Virus record (IMG/VR): IMGVR_UViG_3300048858_000128
Coordinates: 1 to 62,635 of that record
DNA length: 62,635 nucleotides
DNA from: a virus
Lineage: Duplodnaviria > Caudoviricetes
Reading direction: 5' to 3' (one strand)
Below, piece after piece: positions 3,225 to 36,365 of the stretch. The position numbers and the translations under genes were made by a program. Numbering within the stretch: the first letter of the stretch is position 1; every line of letters begins with the position of its first letter. The notes under the pieces were generated by a model. The model saw nothing but the letters and a program-made list of their open reading frames with translations. It did no database searches and had not been told where the DNA came from.

Positions 3225-3680
3225 ATGGCGCTCATCCAGAGCAAATACTCCAAGGGCATTGTCCTCGCGCCCTTCCCGGCTTTCGCCGGCCACGTCGTTG
3301 CGCATCGCTTCAGCCACATCTTCACGGCTGCGCCGGCACTCAACGACATCCTTGAACTCGCCCCTATCCCGGTCGGTTGCCGCGTCATGGATCTGATCCT
3401 CGATGCCGATGACATGGACAGCGGCACTGTCCTCACCTGCGACGTTGGCGTCATGTCCGGCCTCTTTGGTGTCAACGACAACGCTCGCACCGTCGGCGCC
3501 GAGTTCTTCTCCGCTTCGGCGCTCCTTCAGGGCGGCGGTGTTGCCCGTCCGACCTTGAAAACCGCGTTCCGCGTAACTCCCACCGACACCACCCGCGGGA
3601 TCGGCATCAAGATCACCGGCAGCATCGCGACCTTCACGCCCGGCGAGATTGGCCTCACCGCCTACTACGCGACCACGTAA
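3225..3680 (+). CDS. Virion structural protein (possible capsid decoration)
   Basis: Immediately after the capsid gene; beta-rich 151 aa; AGGAG RBS. Confidence 0.6.
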   Translation: MALIQSKYSKGIVLAPFPAFAGHVVAHRFSHIFTAAPALNDILELAPIPVGCRVMDLILDADDMDSGTVLTCDVGVMSGLFGVNDNARTVGAEFFSASALLQGGGVARPTLKTAFRVTPTDTTRGIGIKITGSIATFTPGEIGLTAYYATT

Positions 3681-7795: not shown

Positions 7796-8419
7796 ATGGA
7801 TATTTATCACTATCACCCTGTGAGCGGCTTCTTTGTGGCGATCGGACAGGCTGATCCTGACCCTCTCGGAAACCCTGAAGGCGACCTTTCCCTGCCGTTT
7901 CTCATTCCGGCGTATGCGACAACCGTTGCGCCGCCGGAACCGGTCGCAGGTAAAGATAGGGCGTTTCGGGACGGCGCTTGGACCTATCTCGCAATCGCGC
8001 CTCCCGTCGAAGAGCCGGAACCAGAAGTATTTCCACCCTCGTCAGATGATGTAGACGCCGAACGCGATCGGCGCATAGCCGCCGGCTTCACATTTGAGGG
8101 CGTCCTCTACCAGGCCGACGAAGAGGCACGTGAGAACATCATGGGTGCGCACAAGGCCGCATCTGACGCGATGATGCTTTTCGGCGCAGAGGCCGGGAAC
8201 CTTGCGTGGCAGCAGCTCCTCGATCCGCACGCGCCGGCGGAGTTCAAATGGATCGCGGCGGACAATTCGCGGGTCTCCATGGACGCGCCGACCGTCCTGC
8301 GATTTGGCTATGCCGCTTTGGGCCACAAGTCCCGGCATATTTTCGCGGCGAGTGACCTAAAGAGCATGAGCTCGATACCCTCCGATTACGCTAGCAATCC
8401 GGCTTACTGGCCGATCTGA
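7796..8419 (+). CDS. Tail fibre assembly/chaperone-like protein (DUF4376-like)
   Basis: FLIPAYATT..PP, VDAERDRRIAAGF, WIAADN motifs; follows the fibre gene. Confidence 0.75.
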   Translation: MDIYHYHPVSGFFVAIGQADPDPLGNPEGDLSLPFLIPAYATTVAPPEPVAGKDRAFRDGAWTYLAIAPPVEEPEPEVFPPSSDDVDAERDRRIAAGFTFEGVLYQADEEARENIMGAHKAASDAMMLFGAEAGNLAWQQLLDPHAPAEFKWIAADNSRVSMDAPTVLRFGYAALGHKSRHIFAASDLKSMSSIPSDYASNPAYWPI

Positions 8420-18066: not shown

Positions 18067-18258
18067 TCAATGCCGCACGAGCACCCGCACTTCGTGTTCC
18101 GCGGCGTAGAAGAAGGGCTCCGACCGGTTCATGGACACGCACAGCGGAACCCCGTCCTCGTCGAACAGCACCCAGAACTCCCTCCCCTCCTGCAACTGCG
18201 GGCGGATGTAGCCGATAGTCTCCGGCCACTCACCACCCGGATCATCGCCGTTGATCAA
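18067..18258 (-). CDS. DUF1150-like small protein
   Basis: VLFDEDGVPL...R..FFYAAEHE...VRH C-terminal pattern. Confidence 0.55.
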   Translation of the reverse strand: MINGDDPGGEWPETIGYIRPQLQEGREFWVLFDEDGVPLCVSMNRSEPFFYAAEHEVRVLVRH

Positions 18259-21200
18259 TAAACCCGCTCCGGCAATTGCTTCCTGAGCTGCTGCCCCAGC
18301 GCCTCGTTCTGGATCAGCGCACCGTCCTCACGCTTGACCCTGTTCTTCGCCCGGGTAGAGAGCGATCGCTTCAACGTCTCGCTGGTGATCGCGACCGGCC
18401 TGTGGGCGGGATTGGTATTGAACTTCCTGATTTCCTCAAAGGCGGCGGCCCGTGCCTCCGGATCCTTGTCTTCAACGGCTTTCGCGAACGAATTGATCGC
18501 CGATCGCCTGGCGTCATTGATCTTCGCCTCGGCATTCTTCAGGGCGCTTGCGCGATCGTATGTCTCCGAAATCTTCGCCGGTGTGAACCCAAGGCTCTGG
18601 CTGATCAGATTGCTGGTTGAAAGTTCACCCGGAGCCACGACCTCGTCGCCGGCACGAGTGGTCACGCCATCCCATGCGAAGCGCCATGTTTTCATCAGAT
18701 CGCGAACCGCCTTTGGAGCAGCGATCTCAATCCCGCGAGCGACACTGCTATCGTCCGTGGTGACCTTATAGGCCTCGAACATGCTGCCTATCATGCTCAC
18801 ACCAGCACCCAGGGAGTTGAGGACGTAATATTCCCACTCGGCCTTTCCTTCGAGATCCCTGTCAGGACTTCTAAACCAGAGATCTGGCATTCCGATCCGC
18901 GCCGTCAGGTCGATGCCGAGATAATGGCCAGGAGCTCCGTAAAGGAAAATGCCGCCCAACTCCGGGCCGAGCGTCCTGATCACGCCAGCCTTGAATCGAT
19001 CTTCCATCGACATTGGATCGTCGTCGTCGCCGAAGATGCCGGATAGCAGGCTGGCGGCCGCCATCGCCAGCCCATACCCCACGGTACCTGTTGCCCCTGC
19101 CATCAGTCCCATCATGCCGACGGTGCCGGCGAGCTGCGTCACCGCTTCACGCCTGGCCTGGCGGCTTTCGCCCTTCACCGCCTGATGAACGTCCCGGAAG
19201 AGCCTGTAGAGCATGTTCACCTGGTACGACCTAAACATCAGCGTAAACTTGAACTCGGGGCGCTGCATGATCCGTGGGCGAGAGCTGTTGGTCATGTCAA
19301 AATGCGTAGAATAGGTCCGCTCATGGGCGACGTTGATAGCGTCGAGATGATCATAGCCGGCATCCCGCGCCAGCCGATAAGCAGCCAGGGCTGTAACGGA
19401 CCGGTTAAACACCTCGACGTTATGGAAGCCCCAGCTCGCCGCTCTCATCACCTTGGCCCGTATCGGATCGTAGGTGGTGCCTGTTTCTGAAACGGCAGCG
19501 AGATCGTGGCTCTGGGTCCGATCGATTAAGCCGGATTCGTAGAACGCATCCATCGCTGCCTTCTCTTCGCGCGACAGGCCGCCTTTCTTCAAGTCTCCCC
19601 TGCCCACCGCAAATTCCCGGGAAGCTGTCAGCAACGCTGCAGCCGATTTTCCTATCCCGAACTTCGCGCCGAGCAGTGGCACCCCCATCATCCAGGTCTG
19701 GGAGGCGTTCACGATGGCAGCAGCGGGGCTGAAGCCCATGTACCAGATGAAGGCGGCGCTGTTGGCGTAGTTCACGAAGGCGTTGCCGCCCGGGTTTCTG
19801 ACCCACTTGTCCCGAAGATTCAACTCATTGACCAGAGCCATTTCCCGGGTGTTGTCCTCGAAATCCTTGGCCTGCTCTTCTGCGCGGTTGACGTTCTCCT
19901 GGAGCTCAAGCCCGTATTTCAGACGGCCCATCTGGTGAGCGCCGTGGAACATGGCGCTGCCGAAGGCCCGAAAAGCGTCCTTGTTGAAGCCGGCAATGCC
20001 TTTGCGGTGAATGAAGCGCTTCCGCATGGACAGGTCAGGGAAGGTCGTTAGCCAACGCTGATAAAGAGCGTCGCGCACGTCGTCACCAACTCCTGAATCG
20101 GCGAGGAGCCTCTCGATGTCGCCGACAACACGGGGATCCATCACCTTACGGATCTCGCCGTTCTTCGACATGCGGCCGGTCTCAATTTCGGCACCGTTGA
20201 TCTCTCGAGAGACCTCCTTCAAGACACGATTGGCATCCGCCTTGGTCTCATGTCGGGAAAAATGCAGGACGTCGCTGCCGGTAATCTTTCCGTCGGCGTC
20301 GCGGATCGGTCGCCGGGCGGTGACGTAGTAATCTCCGAAGCGCGATAGGGGGAAATATGGGGGGGCGACACGGTTGCTCTCGAATTGCTGGCGCAGCCGC
20401 GTCATGCGCGCCTTCGATGCCCACTGTCCCTTGGTCCGTTCAGCCTTGTATTTGCTGGCCGCGTTCTCTTCAGCCCGCCGCCGGGCGACAGGATCGATGG
20501 CGCTCGCGGCGATATCAGCCAGTTCCTCTTTGTAACGCCGCTCGGCATGCTGCGCGGCCAGCTCCTGCGCCTTCCGAACATTGTCGAGCAGCAGTTCGTC
20601 GAGCTCGTCGGCCTGCTCGCGATAGGCATCCCGCACGCCTTGGAAAAGCTCGCGGCCAACGGGCGGCAACGCGGTGAATTTTTTCCGGAGCGCCTGATAG
20701 CCAGATTTGGCCTTCTCTTCATCAGTGGTCAACGATGGATCGATCCCAGCCAAGGTGGCTTCGTGCATCAGGTCGGCCAGTTCTGCGGCCCGTGACTTAT
20801 CCACCAGCGCGGCACCGACACCGTAGCCTCGCCGGTAGCCGAGACTGATGTATTTCCGCCAACGGTCGGCGAGCGCCGCTGCAGCGTCATGCTTCTTGCC
20901 GCGGTAGGCATCCATCTTGCGTTTCACGAGGAGGTAATCCGAAATAGCCGGGATCTTGTCGCCGGCGAGTTCGGGGAAGTAATTGAGGGGAACAGCAGCG
21001 AGGAGACCGGGCTGCGCGTCGTGGAACTTGCCAGATAGGGCATCCTTCACCCGACCGACAATATTTTCCTTCGTCGCGGCAGCGGGCGCGAAGTCGCGGT
21101 CTACTTCTTTCCAGAGGCGCTTTTCTGCCTGATCATCTCGCGCGCCTCCTTCAGATAAGCCGTCCTTTCCGGATCCGGCTCCCAGTTGCTGACGGACTTC

Positions 21201-24200
21201 TCCCACTCCTTCCACTGCTCGAGTGGAGCCCACTCCGTCGGTGGATCGACGAACCCGCGCACTTGATTTTCCGCCATCACTGTACTCCTTCGCCAAGCCG
21301 AGCGCGGCGCGATCAATGGCTTCCTTCAGCCCTTTGATCTCGGCAGGATCATATGCCGCATCAGATTTCATGTCGATGATGCCGGCCCGCGCGGCGAGCA
21401 GGCTTGGAATATGCCGAGCCGCAATATCCGCACCCTCCGGATCGATCCGCCGGGCCCGTTCTGCGGCCCTCACAACATCCTTTGGGGACATAGCCGCGGT
21501 CTCAAGAGCGGCCTGCAGTTCACGCGCTGAGGTGCCGGAACCTCCGTCTGTTATCCTGGCACGGGCGACCGGCGTCAGAGCCGCTCGCGCTGATGAGCCG
21601 TTGTGCCCGAATGCCCAGACCGAGTGGACGCCCGGCATGGAGAGAAGGCCGATGTCTGGTGCGCTCAGCGGCCCGTTCCGAGGATGATTGTGGAACATGA
21701 CAAGCCGCCGGTCCGGATTCGACATCGCCGAGAAGAGCCTGTCGTTCATGCCGGTATAGCTGGGATCGCCTGCCGTGCCGTAGCTCACGACGGTACCATC
21801 GGCATCGACAGCCATGAGATACTCGTGACCCTTCTGTTTTCCGGCGGTAACCACGCTGTCCCTCGCCCAATCATTGAGGCGCACGCCTTCTGGCCGTGCC
21901 GGCGGGTCTAGTTCCCTCAGATCGTTGCGCGTCACTCTGATCTTGGGATCAGGCCGGCGCTGATCAGGGCTCGTGGCCGAGGCGTCTTCGTACGGCTCGG
22001 CAAAACCGTTCTCCTCGGCAGGAGGCAGGGCCGGAGCCTTCCGGGATTCGACTTCCGCGGATTGCGGTGCTATCGTTTCTTCTGCTCGTGGCGGGGTTGG
22101 CGCAGCCTGGTCGCCCCACAAGTCGCTGAGACGGCGTGAACTTCTTTCAGTGCGCCGCGAGCCCTTTTCGAAAGCAGTCAGCAGCCAGGTTTTCGCGGTA
22201 CCGTCAAAATCAAGACGAATACCGGCATTGCCGCTTTCGTCACGGAGCTGGATGCGTTTGGTGGTACTGCGATCTTTATCAACGTGAAGCCGATTGATGA
22301 AACCCTGGAGATCGCCAAGCACCTCCGGGTGCCAGGCCAAAAGCTTGGCCAGACCCGCCCCGTTGCTCGCGTTTGTGCCGGCGTTGCCCCAGACGAGATC
22401 AATCGGTCCCACGTCAGGATGGTTGAGAGCGCCGATGGCATCGCCAGTCTGCCTCTTCTCGAGCTCTAACGCTGCCTCTCTCCACCTGCCTTCGAAGCCC
22501 CGAAGAATGGGGCCGAAGGGGCCCGAAGCCACTTCCTCTTCAGACGTCGTTTCAAGAGCGACCGAAGAAGGTTTTATAGGTGAAGCGTCGTTGTCTAGAC
22601 CGTCTGCCGGTTCTTCAAGGCCGCCAGGAGACGAAGATTTCCGGCTATCCTCCGCATCTCCTGAGCGTCCGTTTCGCTCACCGTCTCCGCCCTCTTCAAC
22701 CAGGCCTCTGACCGGCTCTTGAGTTCCTGCGAGCTCGTCGCCGAAGAATGGGATACTGCTTTGTTTTCCATCAACAACGGGCTCCGGTGGACGATCGCTG
22801 AGGCTAGCTTCAAATTTAGCTTCGTCCTCTAGTACGGCACGGTCGAACGCATCTAGCGGCGACAGATCTTCTTCTACCATGTACTCCGCTGCGCGAGCAA
22901 GAACGGCCTCATCGACCGCGAAGTCGCCGCCTAAGTCGCTCAAGGTCGCCGCGATCTCACGCACAAATCGTTGATAGTCTGCTCGGCCGGCCAACTGAGC
23001 CTCGTACTCTTCCGAAGCCCGCAGTAGATCAGAATCGGCTAGTGAATACGCTTTTCCGCCACGGGCTTCTTGATCGATGAGGTCGAGTAGATCTCTCACG
23101 GTGCTTTTCGCGGTCGCATCGTCAGCGGTGCCATAGAGATGATCAAAGTAACCCGCCTGAGCCGCAGCTTCGCGTGCTTTATCCAGCGGTACTCCGCCTG
23201 ACCTGACTAGGGCTCCTCGTCCCGGCACAAACCTCCGCTTGAGGCCCATGTGTGCCAGTTCACCACCGTCGTCCCTCAGTCCGCCCTCTGCGGCAAGGAA
23301 ATCGAAGAGGCTCTGGGGGCGCCGAGCGCGCTTAGCTATTCGGGGTTTCGACGATCGCGTACCAGGACGCTCTCCAGCAAAGCGTGCATTCGTCGTTTTG
23401 TCCCTCGAACCATCGGCCATTTTTGAGAACGGCTCTGTGGTTTTGCCCGACTTCAGCCAGGCCTTGAAATCGCCCATCGTGGTCGGGCTGACATCGCCAA
23501 GCCCCTTCCACCCGGCGGTGTAGTTTTCGAGATATGCCGCCCGCGCAGCAGCTTCCGTGTCGAAGCCTATCATCACCTTGTGCTCGTCAAACCGGCCGTT
23601 GGCGCTGCGTTGATCGACGACGAACACAGGTGCGCTGTCGTCGAGCTCGGGCGTGCCCGGACGGATGAAGGTGTCGATGTGGTCTTTGTCGCGGCCGACG
23701 GTGCCGCGGATGTAGCCGTAGTGGCTGCGCATCTTCACCGACCACGGCTTGCCGCTCGAATCTGTGCCTTTCCGCTCGGAGCCGGCTGGGTTCTCGATCG
23801 AGAGATCGAGACCAGCGAGGCGCATGCGGCCAACCTTGTAGTTTCCAGCCTCCTTCTGCGCCTGCGTCGGCTCCGGCAGATCATTGGTCGGCGACGTCGC
23901 AGCATCGTGGACGGCGAAGTCCGCGCCCACTTCGCTGGTGTCCCGCGCCGGCCGGGTAGCAGCCAGCTTGTTCCGGATCGCCGGCGTGAGGTGCTGCCAC
24001 ATCACGCGCTCGGAGCGCTTCACGCCCGCCTGGTCAAGAACCTGCTTGCGGCCCTGCGCGGTCAGCTCGACGTCCCACCAGTGCGACAGATCGTCGGCCC
24101 TGTCCGTCGCCTCCGGCTGCTGCTTTGCAAGCTCGTTTTGCCACTGGCGGAGACGACGCTCGTTGACCGGGGGCATTTTCACAGGGAGCTTCGACCGGGC

Positions 24201-27200
24201 TTCCTTGCCTGCCCGTTCGACTCGGTACCGGTAATCGTCCGCCATCGCGCCGAGTGCCGTGGTGGTTACGCCGAACTCCCGCGCGAGCCGCTTGAGCTCC
24301 GGGTTATCGACGCTCTCCATATCGAGCTGGGAGGCGCCGAGCGTCTTCTTCGACACGAACCGCTCACGGGCAAGGTCGAACAGCCGAGCGTGCTTCTCGT
24401 CCGGCAGCTCGACGGTCTTGTCGCCAACGCGCCGGCGGGTCGGCGTCATCTCCGCCGCCTCACGCTCTACAGGGGGGGTGCGCTTCAGTTCGTCAGCTTC
24501 GACCTGCTTTTCGGTCTGATTGCTGATGAACAGGCTATCCGCCGGCACCTGGTATTCCCTGCCGGCTTCATCTTTGACGACGGCTTCCTGCCCGCCATCG
24601 GTCCATGTGCTGATCGTGGCCGCGAACCGGCCGCCGTTCTTGTCGTCGACAATGACGCGCTGCCCTGCTTCGGGCGCCGTCGGGAACCGTTCGGTGGCCG
24701 GCTTCTGCTGATCGCGCGGAGGAAGTCCCTCACTGGTGACTTCCGTCCCGATCGGCGCCAACGGTTCAAGCGCCGGATCATTCGAGAACTCGGGCAGGCT
24801 GTCGTCGATCGGCACCGGGCCGACGTCGCGCGGGTTTTCACGCTCGATAGTCTCGGCAGATTTGGCAATCTGGGTCAGATTGCCGATCGGGATCTGGTAG
24901 ATTTCGCCGCTGCCGCTGTCGATCACAACGGCCTCGTCGCCCTCGTAGCCATCGATCCGGCCCATGAAGGGCTCGATACCGTCGGCATCTATGCGCACCG
25001 TCGCGCCCACCTCGGGGCGGCCGTCGGTCGGCGCCGGCGCCGCGGGTGCCACCTGTGGGGTTCTCACGGCGATGGCCTCATCGGCACGCTGGACAGCGCG
25101 GCTGATTGGCCCGGCTGGCTGGGGCGCCGGTGCCGCGGTACCGGGATCAACGCCCGGGATGGATTCGGGGGAGGCTGGACGCGCTGCGCCGCCCGCTCCG
25201 CCCATGGCACCGCCCATCGCGCCGCCTGCTGCGATGCCCGATGCTACTGCCTCCCCCACGCCCTCTGTCAGGGATTGGTTCGGATCAACCCTCTGAACAG
25301 CGGCGTTCTCCGAAATTGCCTGCGCGGCACCTTGGGGCGCCTCTTCCAGGATGCCCTCTGCGACGGCACCGCGGACGCCACCGGCCACAATACGACGCGC
25401 GACGCCACCGCCGACACCTTCGGCGATGATCTTCGCCAGCGCCCGGTCACCCAAGCCGCCGAACATGCCGGTGGCCACGCCCGAGATAAGGAACGCCTGG
25501 CTCGCTGCATCTTCGCTGACGGCCTTGATCGCGTCGCCTTCGGACATGCCGCCTTCGATCATGGACCTGACGGCATCGGACTGCATGAGCTGGTCGCGCG
25601 GCAGAGCAGCGATGCGATCGCGGACGTTCTTCGCCGAATCGCCGGCCGCCATGCCGCCTTCGAGGATCGCGCCGCTGAGTGTGGCGGTGCGGGCAGCCGT
25701 AGCGGCCGCGGCTCTCTGCGTTGCGCCGCCGGCGATCGCCCTGACGTATGCGCCTCGAGCGAGGATGCCGCCGGGCAGCATCGTAACGACGGTACCGGGC
25801 GCGCTCTCGCCGACGGCGCGCAGATAGCTGCGGGGGTCGCGCCAGGCTGGACCAAACCAGCCGCGATCCTCGTCCCACCAGTTTTTGGCGTCCGCATCGG
25901 CCTGTGCTGGCGTGACGGATGCGCGGGCTGCCGTGTCCGCATTCTCCATCTTCTTGTCGAGCGTGTTACCCAACACCCAGCGGTCGATGTCGTCGGAAGC
26001 CTTGAGGAAGGTCTCGCCGCCGGGAAGCCTGCTGAACACGGTATCAGCGATCGAGGAGAGGGACTGGCCGATTCCGATGACACCGGATTTCAGGATGCGG
26101 CCCGTATCGCCGAGCACGCCGGACGAGCGGTTCGCTTCCTCCCACCTCGCTTGCCAGTCTGGCAGCTGGTCCTCGTCGATGGTCTGGTACCGGCCGGGGT
26201 TCTCCGCCTCGAGCACCGCGGCGCGCTGACCGACGTCGTCGTTATGCCGTTCGGTGAAGGCGTTGTTCCGGTTCTCTTCGAACTGGTTGGCAACCGCTTC
26301 CTTGGTGGCTGCGGCCTTCGCGGCCTGCTCGGCGGCCATCGTGGCGAATGGGTTTTCGGCGGTGCCGAAGACACCTAGGCCGTCGGCGGGCTTGAACGTC
26401 TCATCTATAACAATCGAACCGGCGCCTGCCGATCCACTCGATGAAGCCCTTGCACGGGAGTTCGGCGCGGAAACGATCGGGTCAACATAGGCCGTGGCCG
26501 CCGAACTGGGCGTTTCCCCCTGCCGTACAACGCCGCCGACGATCTCCCGCCCTGGTCGGAAGCCCTCAACACGCTCCATCGCGTCAAGGACGGCGACCCG
26601 TTGCCGGGCACTGAGCTCTGCCAGCGGGGTATCGATGCTGACGCCCGCGGCGGTCGCGACGGACGAGGCGTAGGAGTCGGTATTGTTTTCGCTCGGCGGG
26701 GCATACCGCGAAATGGCCTGATAGATCGTCTTGTCCCGATAGCCCTTGCTGTCGAATAACAGGCTCTCCTTCGCGCGCCGGCCTGCCTCATAGGTTGGGA
26801 AGACGGCGAACCGTCCGTCCGTGCCGATAGCGCCCAAGCCCTTTGCAAACTGCCCGTACTCAATGTTGCCGGGGTTGTTGTTGCGCCACGCACGGGTGCC
26901 CTTACGCCTGATAACCTCGCCGTCGGCGCCGACGACTTCGGTCCAGCCTTTTCCAGCCGCGACAACCGTTGAGTACCCAGCGGTGTTTACCTCCGGGGTT
27001 TCCGGCTTCAAGATCGCATCAAAGGGACTTTCCCGGGCCGGCTCTGTGGTGACTTCTGAACTCTGGTCCGCCGGGCGGGTGCGAGGCGCCGCGTCAACCG
27101 AAGGGCTCTCTACGGGCTTTGCCGTCGCCTCCGCTGCATCAGACGCGGCCGAGGACGTGGCTGGATTAATCCCAACAGCCTTTTCGCTCGAAGCCTTGTC

Positions 27201-27263
27201 GCCGAACAGGTTCAGCGGGTCTTTGAGGTCGAAATCTTTGCCGAGGCCGATGATGATGGGCAT
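18255..27263 (-). CDS. Giant polyvalent / DarB-like virion protein (3002 aa): lysozyme-like, inorganic-pyrophosphatase-like, PBECR-type RNase, JAB-like and PLxRFG regions
   Basis: WRNNNPGNI (~26850-26890); GNYK...IENPAGSER..HYGYIRGT.G.DKDHID (~23430-23900); IDLVWG...GLAKL...WLLTAFE (~22165-22520); HE...HNHP...S.PD (~21580-21870); YFPLSRFG (~20340); AAGGAG RBS. Confidence 0.88.
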   Translation of the reverse strand: MPIIIGLGKDFDLKDPLNLFGDKASSEKAVGINPATSSAASDAAEATAKPVESPSVDAAPRTRPADQSSEVTTEPARESPFDAILKPETPEVNTAGYSTVVAAGKGWTEVVGADGEVIRRKGTRAWRNNNPGNIEYGQFAKGLGAIGTDGRFAVFPTYEAGRRAKESLLFDSKGYRDKTIYQAISRYAPPSENNTDSYASSVATAAGVSIDTPLAELSARQRVAVLDAMERVEGFRPGREIVGGVVRQGETPSSAATAYVDPIVSAPNSRARASSSGSAGAGSIVIDETFKPADGLGVFGTAENPFATMAAEQAAKAAATKEAVANQFEENRNNAFTERHNDDVGQRAAVLEAENPGRYQTIDEDQLPDWQARWEEANRSSGVLGDTGRILKSGVIGIGQSLSSIADTVFSRLPGGETFLKASDDIDRWVLGNTLDKKMENADTAARASVTPAQADADAKNWWDEDRGWFGPAWRDPRSYLRAVGESAPGTVVTMLPGGILARGAYVRAIAGGATQRAAAATAARTATLSGAILEGGMAAGDSAKNVRDRIAALPRDQLMQSDAVRSMIEGGMSEGDAIKAVSEDAASQAFLISGVATGMFGGLGDRALAKIIAEGVGGGVARRIVAGGVRGAVAEGILEEAPQGAAQAISENAAVQRVDPNQSLTEGVGEAVASGIAAGGAMGGAMGGAGGAARPASPESIPGVDPGTAAPAPQPAGPISRAVQRADEAIAVRTPQVAPAAPAPTDGRPEVGATVRIDADGIEPFMGRIDGYEGDEAVVIDSGSGEIYQIPIGNLTQIAKSAETIERENPRDVGPVPIDDSLPEFSNDPALEPLAPIGTEVTSEGLPPRDQQKPATERFPTAPEAGQRVIVDDKNGGRFAATISTWTDGGQEAVVKDEAGREYQVPADSLFISNQTEKQVEADELKRTPPVEREAAEMTPTRRRVGDKTVELPDEKHARLFDLARERFVSKKTLGASQLDMESVDNPELKRLAREFGVTTTALGAMADDYRYRVERAGKEARSKLPVKMPPVNERRLRQWQNELAKQQPEATDRADDLSHWWDVELTAQGRKQVLDQAGVKRSERVMWQHLTPAIRNKLAATRPARDTSEVGADFAVHDAATSPTNDLPEPTQAQKEAGNYKVGRMRLAGLDLSIENPAGSERKGTDSSGKPWSVKMRSHYGYIRGTVGRDKDHIDTFIRPGTPELDDSAPVFVVDQRSANGRFDEHKVMIGFDTEAAARAAYLENYTAGWKGLGDVSPTTMGDFKAWLKSGKTTEPFSKMADGSRDKTTNARFAGERPGTRSSKPRIAKRARRPQSLFDFLAAEGGLRDDGGELAHMGLKRRFVPGRGALVRSGGVPLDKAREAAAQAGYFDHLYGTADDATAKSTVRDLLDLIDQEARGGKAYSLADSDLLRASEEYEAQLAGRADYQRFVREIAATLSDLGGDFAVDEAVLARAAEYMVEEDLSPLDAFDRAVLEDEAKFEASLSDRPPEPVVDGKQSSIPFFGDELAGTQEPVRGLVEEGGDGERNGRSGDAEDSRKSSSPGGLEEPADGLDNDASPIKPSSVALETTSEEEVASGPFGPILRGFEGRWREAALELEKRQTGDAIGALNHPDVGPIDLVWGNAGTNASNGAGLAKLLAWHPEVLGDLQGFINRLHVDKDRSTTKRIQLRDESGNAGIRLDFDGTAKTWLLTAFEKGSRRTERSSRRLSDLWGDQAAPTPPRAEETIAPQSAEVESRKAPALPPAEENGFAEPYEDASATSPDQRRPDPKIRVTRNDLRELDPPARPEGVRLNDWARDSVVTAGKQKGHEYLMAVDADGTVVSYGTAGDPSYTGMNDRLFSAMSNPDRRLVMFHNHPRNGPLSAPDIGLLSMPGVHSVWAFGHNGSSARAALTPVARARITDGGSGTSARELQAALETAAMSPKDVVRAAERARRIDPEGADIAARHIPSLLAARAGIIDMKSDAAYDPAEIKGLKEAIDRAALGLAKEYSDGGKSSARVRRSTDGVGSTRAVEGVGEVRQQLGAGSGKDGLSEGGARDDQAEKRLWKEVDRDFAPAAATKENIVGRVKDALSGKFHDAQPGLLAAVPLNYFPELAGDKIPAISDYLLVKRKMDAYRGKKHDAAAALADRWRKYISLGYRRGYGVGAALVDKSRAAELADLMHEATLAGIDPSLTTDEEKAKSGYQALRKKFTALPPVGRELFQGVRDAYREQADELDELLLDNVRKAQELAAQHAERRYKEELADIAASAIDPVARRRAEENAASKYKAERTKGQWASKARMTRLRQQFESNRVAPPYFPLSRFGDYYVTARRPIRDADGKITGSDVLHFSRHETKADANRVLKEVSREINGAEIETGRMSKNGEIRKVMDPRVVGDIERLLADSGVGDDVRDALYQRWLTTFPDLSMRKRFIHRKGIAGFNKDAFRAFGSAMFHGAHQMGRLKYGLELQENVNRAEEQAKDFEDNTREMALVNELNLRDKWVRNPGGNAFVNYANSAAFIWYMGFSPAAAIVNASQTWMMGVPLLGAKFGIGKSAAALLTASREFAVGRGDLKKGGLSREEKAAMDAFYESGLIDRTQSHDLAAVSETGTTYDPIRAKVMRAASWGFHNVEVFNRSVTALAAYRLARDAGYDHLDAINVAHERTYSTHFDMTNSSRPRIMQRPEFKFTLMFRSYQVNMLYRLFRDVHQAVKGESRQARREAVTQLAGTVGMMGLMAGATGTVGYGLAMAAASLLSGIFGDDDDPMSMEDRFKAGVIRTLGPELGGIFLYGAPGHYLGIDLTARIGMPDLWFRSPDRDLEGKAEWEYYVLNSLGAGVSMIGSMFEAYKVTTDDSSVARGIEIAAPKAVRDLMKTWRFAWDGVTTRAGDEVVAPGELSTSNLISQSLGFTPAKISETYDRASALKNAEAKINDARRSAINSFAKAVEDKDPEARAAAFEEIRKFNTNPAHRPVAITSETLKRSLSTRAKNRVKREDGALIQNEALGQQLRKQLPERVY
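21101..21277 (-). CDS. Nested 58-aa gene in the +1 frame of the giant gene (candidate immunity protein for the JAB-like domain)
   Basis: AAGGAG 7 nt before the ATG; globular-looking MAENQVRGFVDPPTEWAPLEQWKEWEK... while the host frame is a low-complexity linker. Confidence 0.7.
   Translation of the reverse strand: MAENQVRGFVDPPTEWAPLEQWKEWEKSVSNWEPDPERTAYLKEAREMIRQKSASGKK
22048..22076 (+). promoter_or_regulatory. Antisense sigma70-type promoter inside the giant gene
   Basis: TCGACT-N17-TATCGT with extended -10 TG (TGCTATCGT). Confidence 0.55.
22084..22168 (+). ncRNA. Predicted four-way-junction (tRNA-sized) antisense RNA
   Basis: 10-bp closing stem GCTCGTGGCG/CGCCGCGAGC, three internal hairpins, then CCTTTT; begins 7 nt after the -10 element. 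Confidence 0.5.
22595..22771 (-). CDS. Nested 58-aa helical gene in the +1 frame of the giant gene
   Basis: GGAG 10 nt before the ATG; amphipathic ELKSRSEAWLKRAE...EMRRIAGNLRLLAAL; host frame is a disordered linker. Confidence 0.55.
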   Translation of the reverse strand: MENKAVSHSSATSSQELKSRSEAWLKRAETVSETDAQEMRRIAGNLRLLAALKNRQTV

Positions 27264-34977: not shown

Positions 34978-35054
34978 TGGTTGCGCTGGCAGGATTCGAA
35001 CCTGCGACCTTCAGGTTATGAGCCTATCGAGCTACCGGGCTGCTCCACAGCGCT
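34978..35054 (-). tRNA. tRNA-Met(CAT), initiator type
   Basis: 77-nt cloverleaf AGCGCTG...CTCATAA...GGTTCGAATCC...ACCA; 1:72 mismatch and A11-U24 pair typical of fMet. Confidence 0.9.
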
Positions 35055-35396: not shown

Positions 35397-36365
35397 TCAC
35401 TGCGCCAGGTAGCGGTCGCGCGCGTCGGGCGACATCTTCGCCAGTTCGCGTTCGAACGATACCGAGTCCTTGGCAGCCAGCCGATCGAGGTGGGCGAACT
35501 CGCCGCCGTCGTCAGCATCGGTTATGTCGGCGGCCGGCACGGTGCCGAGGTTGGGAGGCATCTCGGGCCGGGCCTTGGCGTCGGGCTTTGCGGCTGCCGC
35601 TTTGCCGCCAGTCTTCTTGCCCGCATCCGCATCAGGCTTTGGGGTTGGCGTCTCGATGCCGAACGCCGCCTTCACCTGCTCGGCGATGTTCGCGTGCGCC
35701 TTGGCGAGGATCTTTGGATTGAGCGGGTTGACCGCTTCGACCTGAAGCTTGCGCACCTCGGCATCGAGCATGCTCGCTAGCACTGGCGACTTATACTGCT
35801 GATGCTGGCCGATGAAGCTGGAAACATCATCCTGCCAAGTCTCCAAGGCGGTCTCGCGCGCCACCTCGGCCTTGATCTGCTGCCGCTCAATCGTTCTGAA
35901 CTCGGCGTCCAGCGGCTTGAGCTGCGCGCGAAGCTCTTCGGCGGTGAGCTCGCCCTCGTCGAACTTCTTCGCAATCTCGTCGCGCTTGCTGTCGATCGCC
36001 GCAAGCTTCTCGTCCAGATCGCCCGGGACGATCCATTTGGGCGCTCGCTCCTCTGGCTCCTGGGCGTCGGCAGCGTCGGCGGCCGGCGTCTCCTTCGCGG
36101 CGACCGCGGCTGCAGCTGCGGCGGCATCAGCTGCAGCTTTGGCCGTCGCGTCATCGGCAGCGCCGATGTCGTCGTCGCCGTCATCATCACCCTCGCCGTC
36201 ATCACCGGCGTCGCCATCCTTATCGGTGCCGGCAGCATCGCCGCCGGCAGCGTCATCGTCACCAGCGTCGGCTTCATCGTCGCCGGCGTCTTCCTCCTCG
36301 AGGAGGCCTAGACGCTCCTCTTCGGTCAGCAATGCTAATTCTGCTTCACTAAATTTCGGGTCCAT
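35397..36365 (-). CDS. Capsid scaffolding protein
   Basis: Acidic disordered N-terminus, coiled coil, FAHLDRL...ERELAKMS C-terminus; after the portal gene. Confidence 0.75.
   Translation of the reverse strand: MDPKFSEAELALLTEEERLGLLEEEDAGDDEADAGDDDAAGGDAAGTDKDGDAGDDGEGDDDGDDDIGAADDATAKAAADAAAAAAAVAAKETPAADAADAQEPEERAPKWIVPGDLDEKLAAIDSKRDEIAKKFDEGELTAEELRAQLKPLDAEFRTIERQQIKAEVARETALETWQDDVSSFIGQHQQYKSPVLASMLDAEVRKLQVEAVNPLNPKILAKAHANIAEQVKAAFGIETPTPKPDADAGKKTGGKAAAAKPDAKARPEMPPNLGTVPAADITDADDGGEFAHLDRLAAKDSVSFERELAKMSPDARDRYLAQ

Follow-up and report, generated by a model that had tools for sequence, protein, structure and literature searches.

In type III toxin–antitoxin (TA) systems of the ToxI/ToxN kind, the gene for an endoribonuclease is preceded by, and genetically linked to, a co-oriented array of direct repeats that encodes a structured small RNA. 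In type I TA systems, cis-antisense RNAs with stem-loops are made from host-type promoters and overlap the 3' part of the message for the toxin, a small membrane or hydrophobic peptide. Here we describe an element that resembles each of these in part. It lies in IMG/VR virus record IMGVR_UViG_3300048858_000128, a provirus record of 62,635 bases (Caudoviricetes) with portal, terminase, internal-virion and tail-fibre genes, the whole of which was analysed and is called the window below. On the + strand of the window, at 22048–22168, a promoter-like site is followed by a putative small RNA set antisense inside a giant gene, opposite the linker that follows a predicted ribonuclease (RNase) domain, PBECR1. 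An earlier note had picked out this arrangement from the letters of the window, an antisense promoter directly before a compact RNA of ~80 nucleotides (nt) with a long-range stem at the end of PBECR1, and comparison with relatives now supports it. Our overall reading, to which we give a probability of roughly 0.55, is that the window holds a gene for a + strand RNA of ~80–85 nt (~22083–22168), nested antisense in the linker after PBECR1 and most likely transcribed from its own promoter.

The likeness to type III systems consists of a structured small RNA genetically tied to a predicted endoribonuclease, with loops that could be protein-recognition elements and, in some relatives (locus L071 and group B), with two tandem units behind one promoter. 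Unlike those antitoxins, however, the window RNA lies antisense inside its own giant gene rather than upstream on the same strand, it is a single unit rather than a direct-repeat array (tandem units occur only in some relatives), and the predicted RNase forms one BECR-fold domain within a protein of 3002 amino acids (aa). With type I antitoxins the element shares a promoter-like site of host type, stem-loops and, by its geometry, an antisense overlap with the 3' part of the message for a predicted toxin. It differs from them in that the 'toxin' is a domain of a polyvalent virion protein and not a small membrane or hydrophobic peptide, and in that its family has loops conserved across phyla as well as free-standing copies.

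Outside the TA systems, the antisense RNAs c4 of P1/P7 and CI of P4 are likewise compact phage RNAs (~80 nt) whose ends pair and which carry two recognition loops; theirs are immunity regions, whereas the present element sits in a virion polyvalent gene, and Rfam C4 was scanned and gave no match. Rickettsia palindromic elements are also structured units, of ~90–100 nt, that stand in frame in open reading frames (ORFs) and are translated as tolerated inserts. The unit described here differs from them in its wobble pairs, which are strand-specific, in its invariant loops and in a promoter kept among relatives, and in these respects it behaves as a selected RNA gene and not as a selfish repeat. 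In the Pseudomonas podoviruses LUZ100, LIT1 and LUZ7, antisense non-coding transcripts occur in late structural regions and have been proposed as regulators of structural genes (PMC10134795); the accessible part of that paper assigns them to no family and describes neither a conserved structure nor a promoter. The literature searched, supplementary files not included, holds no description of the RNA reported here, the words 'linker' and 'antisense' do not occur in the accessible part of the paper that defines polyvalent proteins and PBECR (PMC5512222), and the family is apparently undescribed.

Results

A promoter-like site and a closing stem opposite the PBECR1 linker

The element is not intergenic. 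Positions 22048–22168 lie wholly inside a − strand ORF of 3002 aa (18255..27263), which the ORF list and its translation mark as a giant polyvalent ('DarB-like') gene; the closest named relatives are giants of Sinorhizobium phage PBC5 and of Agrobacterium phage Atu_ph08, both bearing the annotation 'DarB-like antirestriction'. Pfam places three domains in the protein, InPase (residues 1134–1271), PBECR1 (residues 1614–1701, encoded at 22161..22424 on the − strand) and LPD39 (residues 2070–2261). PBECR1 (PF18809) is a predicted BECR-fold RNase. It scores 23.5 bits in the whole protein, below the cut-off of 27.6, and 30.2 bits when its stretch is scanned alone, and 10/10 aligned relatives match, which identifies the isolated stretch as a PBECR1 domain with predicted RNase activity. 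The flagged bases encode the linker GSRRTERSSRRLSDLWGDQAAPTPPRAEE, which comes after WLLTAFEK.

All the letters named in the earlier note are in place. The promoter-like site (22048..22076, + strand) consists of TCGACT (22048–22053), a spacer of 17 nt and TATCGT (22071–22076), with a TG at 22068–22069, one base ahead of this −10 hexamer. The putative RNA follows at 22083..22168 (~85 nt, + strand), both ends being estimates, and is recognised by a covariance model, R2. Its closing stem, P1, pairs 22084..22093 with 22153..22162 through nine Watson–Crick pairs and one G.U (22089/22157), 10 base pairs (bp) in all, and the 3' arm overlaps the G-S-R-R codons directly past the PBECR1 domain. CCTTTT comes next (22163..22168), as a possible but weak signal for the 3' end, and the whole abuts the WLLTAFEK codons of the − strand.

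Codon-level constraint in the linker

Relatives were collected through the PBECR1 protein and not through the RNA. The loci comprise nine from IMG/VR, 23 genome contigs and 68 IMG/VR records from a profile search, 14 from metagenomes, and those of PBC5 and Atu_ph08; after identical 210-nt stretches were dropped, 81 distinct sequences were left. Among the 14 metagenome loci, L109 was the sole new lineage of the variant seen in the window, which we call A-type, and a search of 401 genomes from the family of G001 gave three matches and nothing new. The A-type comparison was made on a codon alignment of 15 Rhizobiaceae-phage relatives.

Over the RRTERSSRRLSDLW codons the pairwise synonymous difference among these 15 relatives falls to 0.10–0.14, compared with 0.44 overall, and the other well-aligned 8-codon windows (170 windows) all stand at 0.39 or above, with one exception in another linker. 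The core of the coding strand, A[GA]A AGT TCA CGC CGT CTC AG, is invariant at synonymous sites in the relatives and uses the rare codons AGA, AGT and TCA. Selection on the protein alone does not account for synonymous change suppressed to this extent, and the linker shows constraint at the nucleotide level. An RNA under selection would thereby set the codons of the linker encoded opposite and, to some extent, its residues.

A second patch of low synonymous difference (0.066) was seen in relatives L036–L053, ~150–190 codons upstream of WLLTAF, in the linker before PBECR1. It too uses rare codons (GGA CGA GGC GTG GCA GAT ...), the equivalent place in the window (~22600–22680) differs in sequence, and the patch may be another nucleotide-level element.

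The RNA is predicted to form a three-way junction

The closing stem was compared with 268 aligned zones of the same genes, in which a partner was sought 50–100 nt away in the 15 sequences. At the place of P1 a stem of at least 7 bp is present in 15/15 relatives, and this zone ranks first of the 268 at 7, 8, 9 and 10 bp. Control zones commonly form stems, typically in 2 to 9 of the 15 sequences, but only the target zone reaches 15/15, and in the runner-up the partners are inconsistent between sequences. On alignment A4, which holds the 15 relatives, 93.3% of the P1 cells are paired, compared with 31–56% when the partner is slid; six of the ten pairs are altered on both sides, and the covariation score was matched by none of 500 shuffles. 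The arms themselves differ among relatives (GYUCGYGGCG/CGCCGCGARC, CAGCGGCG/CGCCGCUG and UCCCGACG/CGUCGGGG).

RNAalifold, run on the + strand of A4, predicts a three-way junction of −23.8 kcal/mol, against −17.9 kcal/mol for its mirror on the sense strand. P1 appears in this fold as 22086–93 paired with 22153–60, the stem having 10 bp in the window. P2 is a short hairpin, GGC 22099–101 with GUC 22110–12, and the weakest of the helices; its middle pair is AU in six sequences, GC in six and GU in three. P3 joins 22126–31 to 22145–50 (CUGAGA/UYUCAG) and 22133–34 to 22141–42, is paired in 97.5% of cells and has an invariant loop region. Taking the three helices together, 97.9% of cells are paired on the + strand versus 85.6% for the sense-strand mirror, 8/19 pairs are changed on both sides, and no shuffle among 500 equalled the covariation score. 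The wobble pairs point to the same strand: one-sided changes come out as G.U pairs on the + strand, where A4 holds 36 G.U and one A.C, and the G.U pairs of P3 would be A.C mismatches if read on the sense strand. Helices kept by compensatory change beyond the controls, as these are, are the generic mark of a structured non-coding RNA.

The fold would therefore be Y-shaped, with P1, P2 and P3, and no cloverleaf, since the inner arms first drawn within the stem fail on the alignment. The closing stem of that drawing covaries and stands; its three inner arms, GTCG/CGGC, TGAA/TTCA and GGG/CCC, are paired in 56.7%, 78.3% and 75.0% of cells among the 15 relatives, with no compensatory change in any of them. 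The inner pair of TGAA/TTCA is broken in 11/15 sequences, and P3 supersedes the two arms on the 3' side. The proposed mimicry of a tRNA fares no better: the string likened to the D-arm of tRNA-Pro occurs in the window and is not conserved in the relatives, ARAGORN finds no tRNA at the element, and Rfam 15 over window positions 21500–22700 gives no tRNA or other relevant match at E≤10. The single tRNA that ARAGORN reports in the window is a tRNA-Met gene at 34978–35054 (− strand), elsewhere in the provirus record.

Promoter-like sites at a fixed place change with the host

At the homologous place, on the strand of the RNA, the A-type relatives carry TGGACA-17-TATATT (10/12) or a version ending in TACATT, with a range of 9–10/12. 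Synonymous sites do not vary within the hexamers (GTC CAA for the −35, AAT ATA with its rare ATA codon for the −10); variation is seen in the spacer and at the codon position immediately flanking the −35 hexamer. In the subgroup L044 and L051–54 the TGGACA-type site lies ~84 nt further upstream, since a second RNA unit sits between the promoter and the A-type unit.

The same signal was found across the wider family described below. A TAnnnT ending at most 16 nt upstream of the RNA is present in 41/52 distinct members, compared with 10.3% of control windows, and most of the 11 members lacking it were clipped by sequence extraction. Different dipeptide codons (AAT ATA, ATT GTA, AGT ATA and ACT ATA) all produce TAyAnT. 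In a subgroup that includes loci in Paludibacteraceae, Bacteroidales and Tidjanibacter metagenome-assembled genomes (MAGs), the site takes the form TAnnTTTG in 9/9 distinct sequences, with a TTTG ~20 nt upstream in the four sequences inspected; in Bacteroidetes, TTTG and TAnnTTTG serve the primary sigma factor as −33 and −7 motifs (PMC7366714). A promoter whose type switches with the host is hard to account for unless it is used. Promoter and stem are conserved behind homologous PBECR domains well beyond the controls.

A wider family in phages of very different hosts

The linker peptides T[RT]TDT and (D/G)DTAR are common to more distant homologues of PBECR1, whose variant of the RNA we call C-type. 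Their codons, which lie opposite the two loops of that RNA, are synonymously invariant (AGG 12/12, GAC 18/18 and 19/19, GCT 16/16, CGC 14/14, GTA 11/11), compared with a synonymous difference of 0.55 in the adjoining domain. When 20 C-type sequences were aligned in the antisense direction, a Y-shaped RNA was again predicted, with P1 arms that are entirely different between members and invariant P2 and P3 loops (GAGCUGUGUCA and AGUGUCYGUC). Compensatory changes are found in 21/23 pairs, with 118 double-change cells; 90.3% of cells are paired versus 40–52% with slid partners, and 0/500 shuffles reach any of these measures. The wobble count in this alignment, A6, is 70 G.U to 8 A.C. A loop–loop pseudoknot in the C-type was considered and set aside as tentative, with 76.3% of cells paired and only two double-change cells; L165 carries a CUAG/CUAG variant of this possible pairing.

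Searches with models of both types place the RNA in most of the PBECR1 loci. Model R1 finds a C-type unit antisense right after PBECR1 in 52/99 loci, R2 finds an A-type unit in 20/99, including L109, which was outside its training set, and together they put the RNA in 68/99, a count that is not de-duplicated. R2 has a single match in the window, at 22078–22168, and its 97.6 bits are mid-range for the family. Weak matches of R1 in the + strand of the window (3393–3507, 36219–36294, 36090–36186 and 19111–19175; 22.7–13.3 bits) were judged to be chance because of large inserts or non-standard pairs. Seven loci holding A-type and C-type units were also scanned with Rfam 15, and none matched at E≤1. 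Place, strand, promoter, topology and tandem occurrence suggest that the two types are homologous, and the window RNA would then be the Rhizobiaceae-phage variant of a wider family that occupies the same place in the polyvalent genes of phages with very different hosts; the two models do not cross-match.

Four cultured phages carry a unit, in each case antisense in a giant virion or polyvalent gene. In BPP-1 it lies at L138 4411–4498 (NC_005357.1 ~10075–10162, + strand, 89.4 bits), in Itty13 at L166 1923–2010 (NC_070969.1 ~8255–8342, + strand, 79.4 bits), in Atu_ph08 at L012 3429–3516 (NC_070876.1 ~20276–20363, − strand, 40.7 bits with filters off) and in PBC5, as an A-type unit, at L045 1775–1871 (~25698–25794 of the 57,416-nt genome, 87.8 bits). 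No RNA is annotated at the unit in the database records examined for these phages, and when the Itty13 unit was compared with the phage collection by blastn, Itty13 alone matched.

Two annotations at these loci deserve mention in their own right. In Itty13 (L166 1–3420), two annotated coding sequences (CDS) stand opposite a frame that is open across all 3420 nt and holds PBECR1, and they probably represent spurious frames on the antisense side of a gene rich in G+C. In the RefSeq record of PBC5 (L011 3001–3516 / L045), the PBECR1 match falls in the gap between the 'DarB-like' CDS gp22 and gp21, and the 460-codon translation of this stretch has six stops, so that the giant gene is split there, by frameshifts or by sequence errors.

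The RNA mostly travels with PBECR1

To look at the association from the side of the RNA, IMG/VR was searched with patterns of the RNA itself. A strict pattern returned 17 loci, 15 of them with PBECR1 adjacent on the other strand. A looser pattern returned 41, with PBECR1 adjoining in 26; of the 15 others, ten are true R1 matches and five are not. The RNA-first total is thus 36 (26 plus 10), with not all of the 26 re-checked with R1. Where PBECR1 is missing, the RNA was found in a giant ORF after GGDEF (L142), after InPase (L156) or after unidentified domains (L130, L148, L149, L151 and L154), in a frame of 394 aa (L145), or as a free-standing copy that has a promoter-like site and faces no long ORF (L137 2040–2127 and L165 5710–5797). 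In all RNA-bearing loci but two, the RNA is antisense inside a giant ORF. At L081 the cassette of PBECR1 and RNA is duplicated in tandem (1260–1347 and 1773–1860), with 92% aa identity over 138 residues. The link between the RNA and PBECR1 is therefore strong but neither obligatory nor exclusive, and these mixed contexts indicate that the RNA behaves as a module that travels mostly, not always, with PBECR1. Coupling to a downstream metallopeptidase was also considered and rejected, an HExxH being within 170 aa in only 9/31 and the domain on the promoter side being variable.

The two free-standing copies lie in regions of small genes and have neighbours of their own. The copy in L137 is followed by an ORF of 111 aa and then by a DUF4258 and HTH pair, the RNA lying ~520 nt upstream of the DUF4258 gene; DUF4258 has been assigned to a colicin-like BECR branch (2026 preprint, accessible part), and this proximity, a single case, is only a lead. 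The copy in L165 sits between a DUF29 gene and a DUF4160 and DUF2442 pair.

The 3' end, transcripts and overlapping frames

A U-rich tract follows P1 in 23/49 family members, compared with 6.0% of control windows. Most of these members are C-type, and the signal is confounded by the conserved F-E-K-K codons. In A-type members the tract is weak and gives no support to an intrinsic terminator, and no terminator is listed at the element by the scan of the window.

Two contigs from a soil metatranscriptome are identical to the window, at 22101–22307 and 22409–22582; they carry no information on strand or ends. That an antisense protein gene follows the RNA was considered and rejected: there is no conserved open frame in five relatives of lower G+C content, and the + strand ORF of the window at 21973–22287 is interrupted by TAA in L038, L039 and L044.

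Two further features of the giant gene were noted. A 932-aa ORF antisense to it at 23580–26378 (+ strand) falls in its most G+C-rich stretch (0.674) and is probably spurious. At ~21600–21750 (− strand; residues ~1840–1890), the domain that follows the linker contains MFHNHPRNGPLSAPD, which resembles a JAB/MPN (RadC-like) metal site that Pfam did not report; where the window protein has this region, relatives carry a methyltransferase.

Discussion

The comparison indicates that a structured, promoter-equipped antisense RNA family is very probably real, and we consider it likely, with less assurance, that the window unit is an intact member of it. According to the overall reading given at the outset, host RNA polymerase would make the RNA in lysogens or early in infection, starting a few bases past the host-type promoter, and the RNA would serve the PBECR1 cassette.

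Several results weigh against this reading. Taken by itself, the window copy is within chance in both fold and promoter: its 79-nt fold has a minimum free energy of −36.1 kcal/mol (z = −1.26), 25/200 shuffles and 63/1786 windows of 79 nt from the same gene fold equally well or better, and its promoter, an 8/12 match plus TG, falls below the threshold of the promoter scan (9/12), is not listed by it and is the most degraded of the A-type set. The A-type alignment has an effective sequence number of 2.06, that is, few independent lineages, and in L051–53 and L058 the partner arm of P1 was picked as the best of 60 offsets, though the loops of 58–59 nt that result agree with the 59 nt in the other relatives. 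All 99 loci searched with the models were fetched through PBECR1 homology, R1 misses the window unit and R2 misses the C-type units. A-type members show no clear signal for the 3' end of the RNA, and the metatranscriptome contigs do not fit an RNA of ~85 nt, although, being unstranded, they weigh neither way.

As to what such an RNA would do, our leading guess, a tentative one, is that it acts as an antidote to PBECR1. Like a type III antitoxin, it would hold the RNase domain inactive by binding it through its invariant loops, with a duplex between the RNA and the polyvalent mRNA as a close second candidate. Loops that stay invariant on drifting stems suggest a conserved partner rather than simple antisense pairing, and the enrichment of the RNA beside a predicted RNase, together with its cassette behaviour, makes neutralisation of PBECR1 the leading mechanism. 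Against the antidote stand the 10/36 RNA-first loci without an adjoining PBECR1, and the provirus of L130, in which, at 94% completeness, the RNA is present and profile search detects no PBECR1.

The next possibility, somewhat less favoured than the antidote, is that the RNA works as type I antitoxins do, as a cis-antisense regulator that pairs with the polyvalent mRNA it overlaps. A loop–loop contact would lead to a duplex and then to cleavage or a block of translation, and a harmful giant late gene would thereby be kept from leaky expression in lysogens or in early infection. The RNA is antisense inside a giant ORF in all but two loci, a host-type promoter points into a late gene, and antisense RNAs are usually built of two stem-loops. 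What this regulator explains poorly is the conservation, since complementarity to the target holds for any sequence, whereas the loops stay invariant from the Proteobacteria-type to the Bacteroidales-type while the stems drift; the free-standing copies of L137 and L165, moreover, have no overlapping gene to regulate. The antisense transcripts of LUZ100, LIT1 and LUZ7 offer a precedent for it (PMC10134795).

It is less likely, though still a close rival, that the RNA acts in trans on the host, as an effector within a counter-defence module that is expressed immediately from a host promoter, whose loops bind or decoy a conserved host or defence factor and whose link to PBECR1 is historical, the two only moving as one cassette. 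The loops are conserved across host phyla, PBECR1 being only 40–55% identical, the promoter is host-adapted, the RNA is kept where PBECR1 is absent and where it stands free, and polyvalent proteins have been proposed as early counter-defence effectors (PMC5512222, accessible part). However, no partner was found: there is no likeness to tRNA, the 18-nt loop region of P3 has no second site in the window at up to three mismatches, and comparison of the loop motifs with the 16S and 23S rRNA of one Rhizobium genome gave chance-level matches only, at up to two mismatches, so that mimicry or targeting of rRNA was set aside on the basis of that genome. A host-directed effector would also leave the enrichment beside PBECR1 (26/36) unexplained.

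We regard it as more doubtful again that the family is real and the window copy a relic, its promoter decayed to 8/12. The window is the only A-type member that lacks both TATATT and TGGACA, and its site went unlisted by the scan; its protein diverges from the relatives just to the left of the element, where the downstream domain would have been swapped for a region with an HNHP motif. Such a swap, combined with promoter decay, would leave the copy untranscribed or weakly transcribed. On the other side, all three helices are intact, the model score of 97.6 bits lies in the middle of the family, and the −10 hexamer retains its T-A...T positions and has gained a TG extension. Finally, that there is no RNA gene at all, and that the unit is a DNA or single-stranded DNA structure, a selfish in-frame palindrome or a structure of the sense mRNA (for instance one that pauses ribosomes at a domain boundary), is very improbable. 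In its favour, the unit turns up in more than one kind of linker, as tandem copies and in one case doubled, like a mobile module, hairpins form on both strands, and G.T pairs are tolerated in single-stranded DNA. Against it, the promoter stands at a fixed distance and is of the Bacteroidetes type in the subgroup with Bacteroidales MAG loci, the wobble asymmetry opposes the sense strand, and the loops are invariant while the stems covary.

If the reading of a nested RNA gene is right, a well-supported RNA family lies hidden within giant phage genes, where surveys of RNA motifs restricted to intergenic regions would miss it. It would also be a clear case of dual coding, in which an RNA on one strand fixes the codons of a linker on the other, along with peptide motifs that in the wider family are TRTDT and DDTAR, and annotators should treat 'conserved linker motifs' and long antisense ORFs in polyvalent genes with caution. 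The element is experimentally accessible, since four cultured phages (PBC5, Atu_ph08, Itty13 and BPP-1) carry it, and two questions would be opened to experiment, namely what lets phages withstand the nucleases they themselves inject and how cassettes of a domain plus its antidote shuffle. It is doubtful, though conceivable, that these RNAs, made by host polymerase as RNA 'domains' of polyvalent genes, belong to a new class of toxin–antidote pair, in which antidotes shuffle as a cassette with the BECR-fold RNase they neutralise, span host phyla and lie nested antisense in their own toxin; if they do, injected effector domains would have a general means of carrying their own off-switch.

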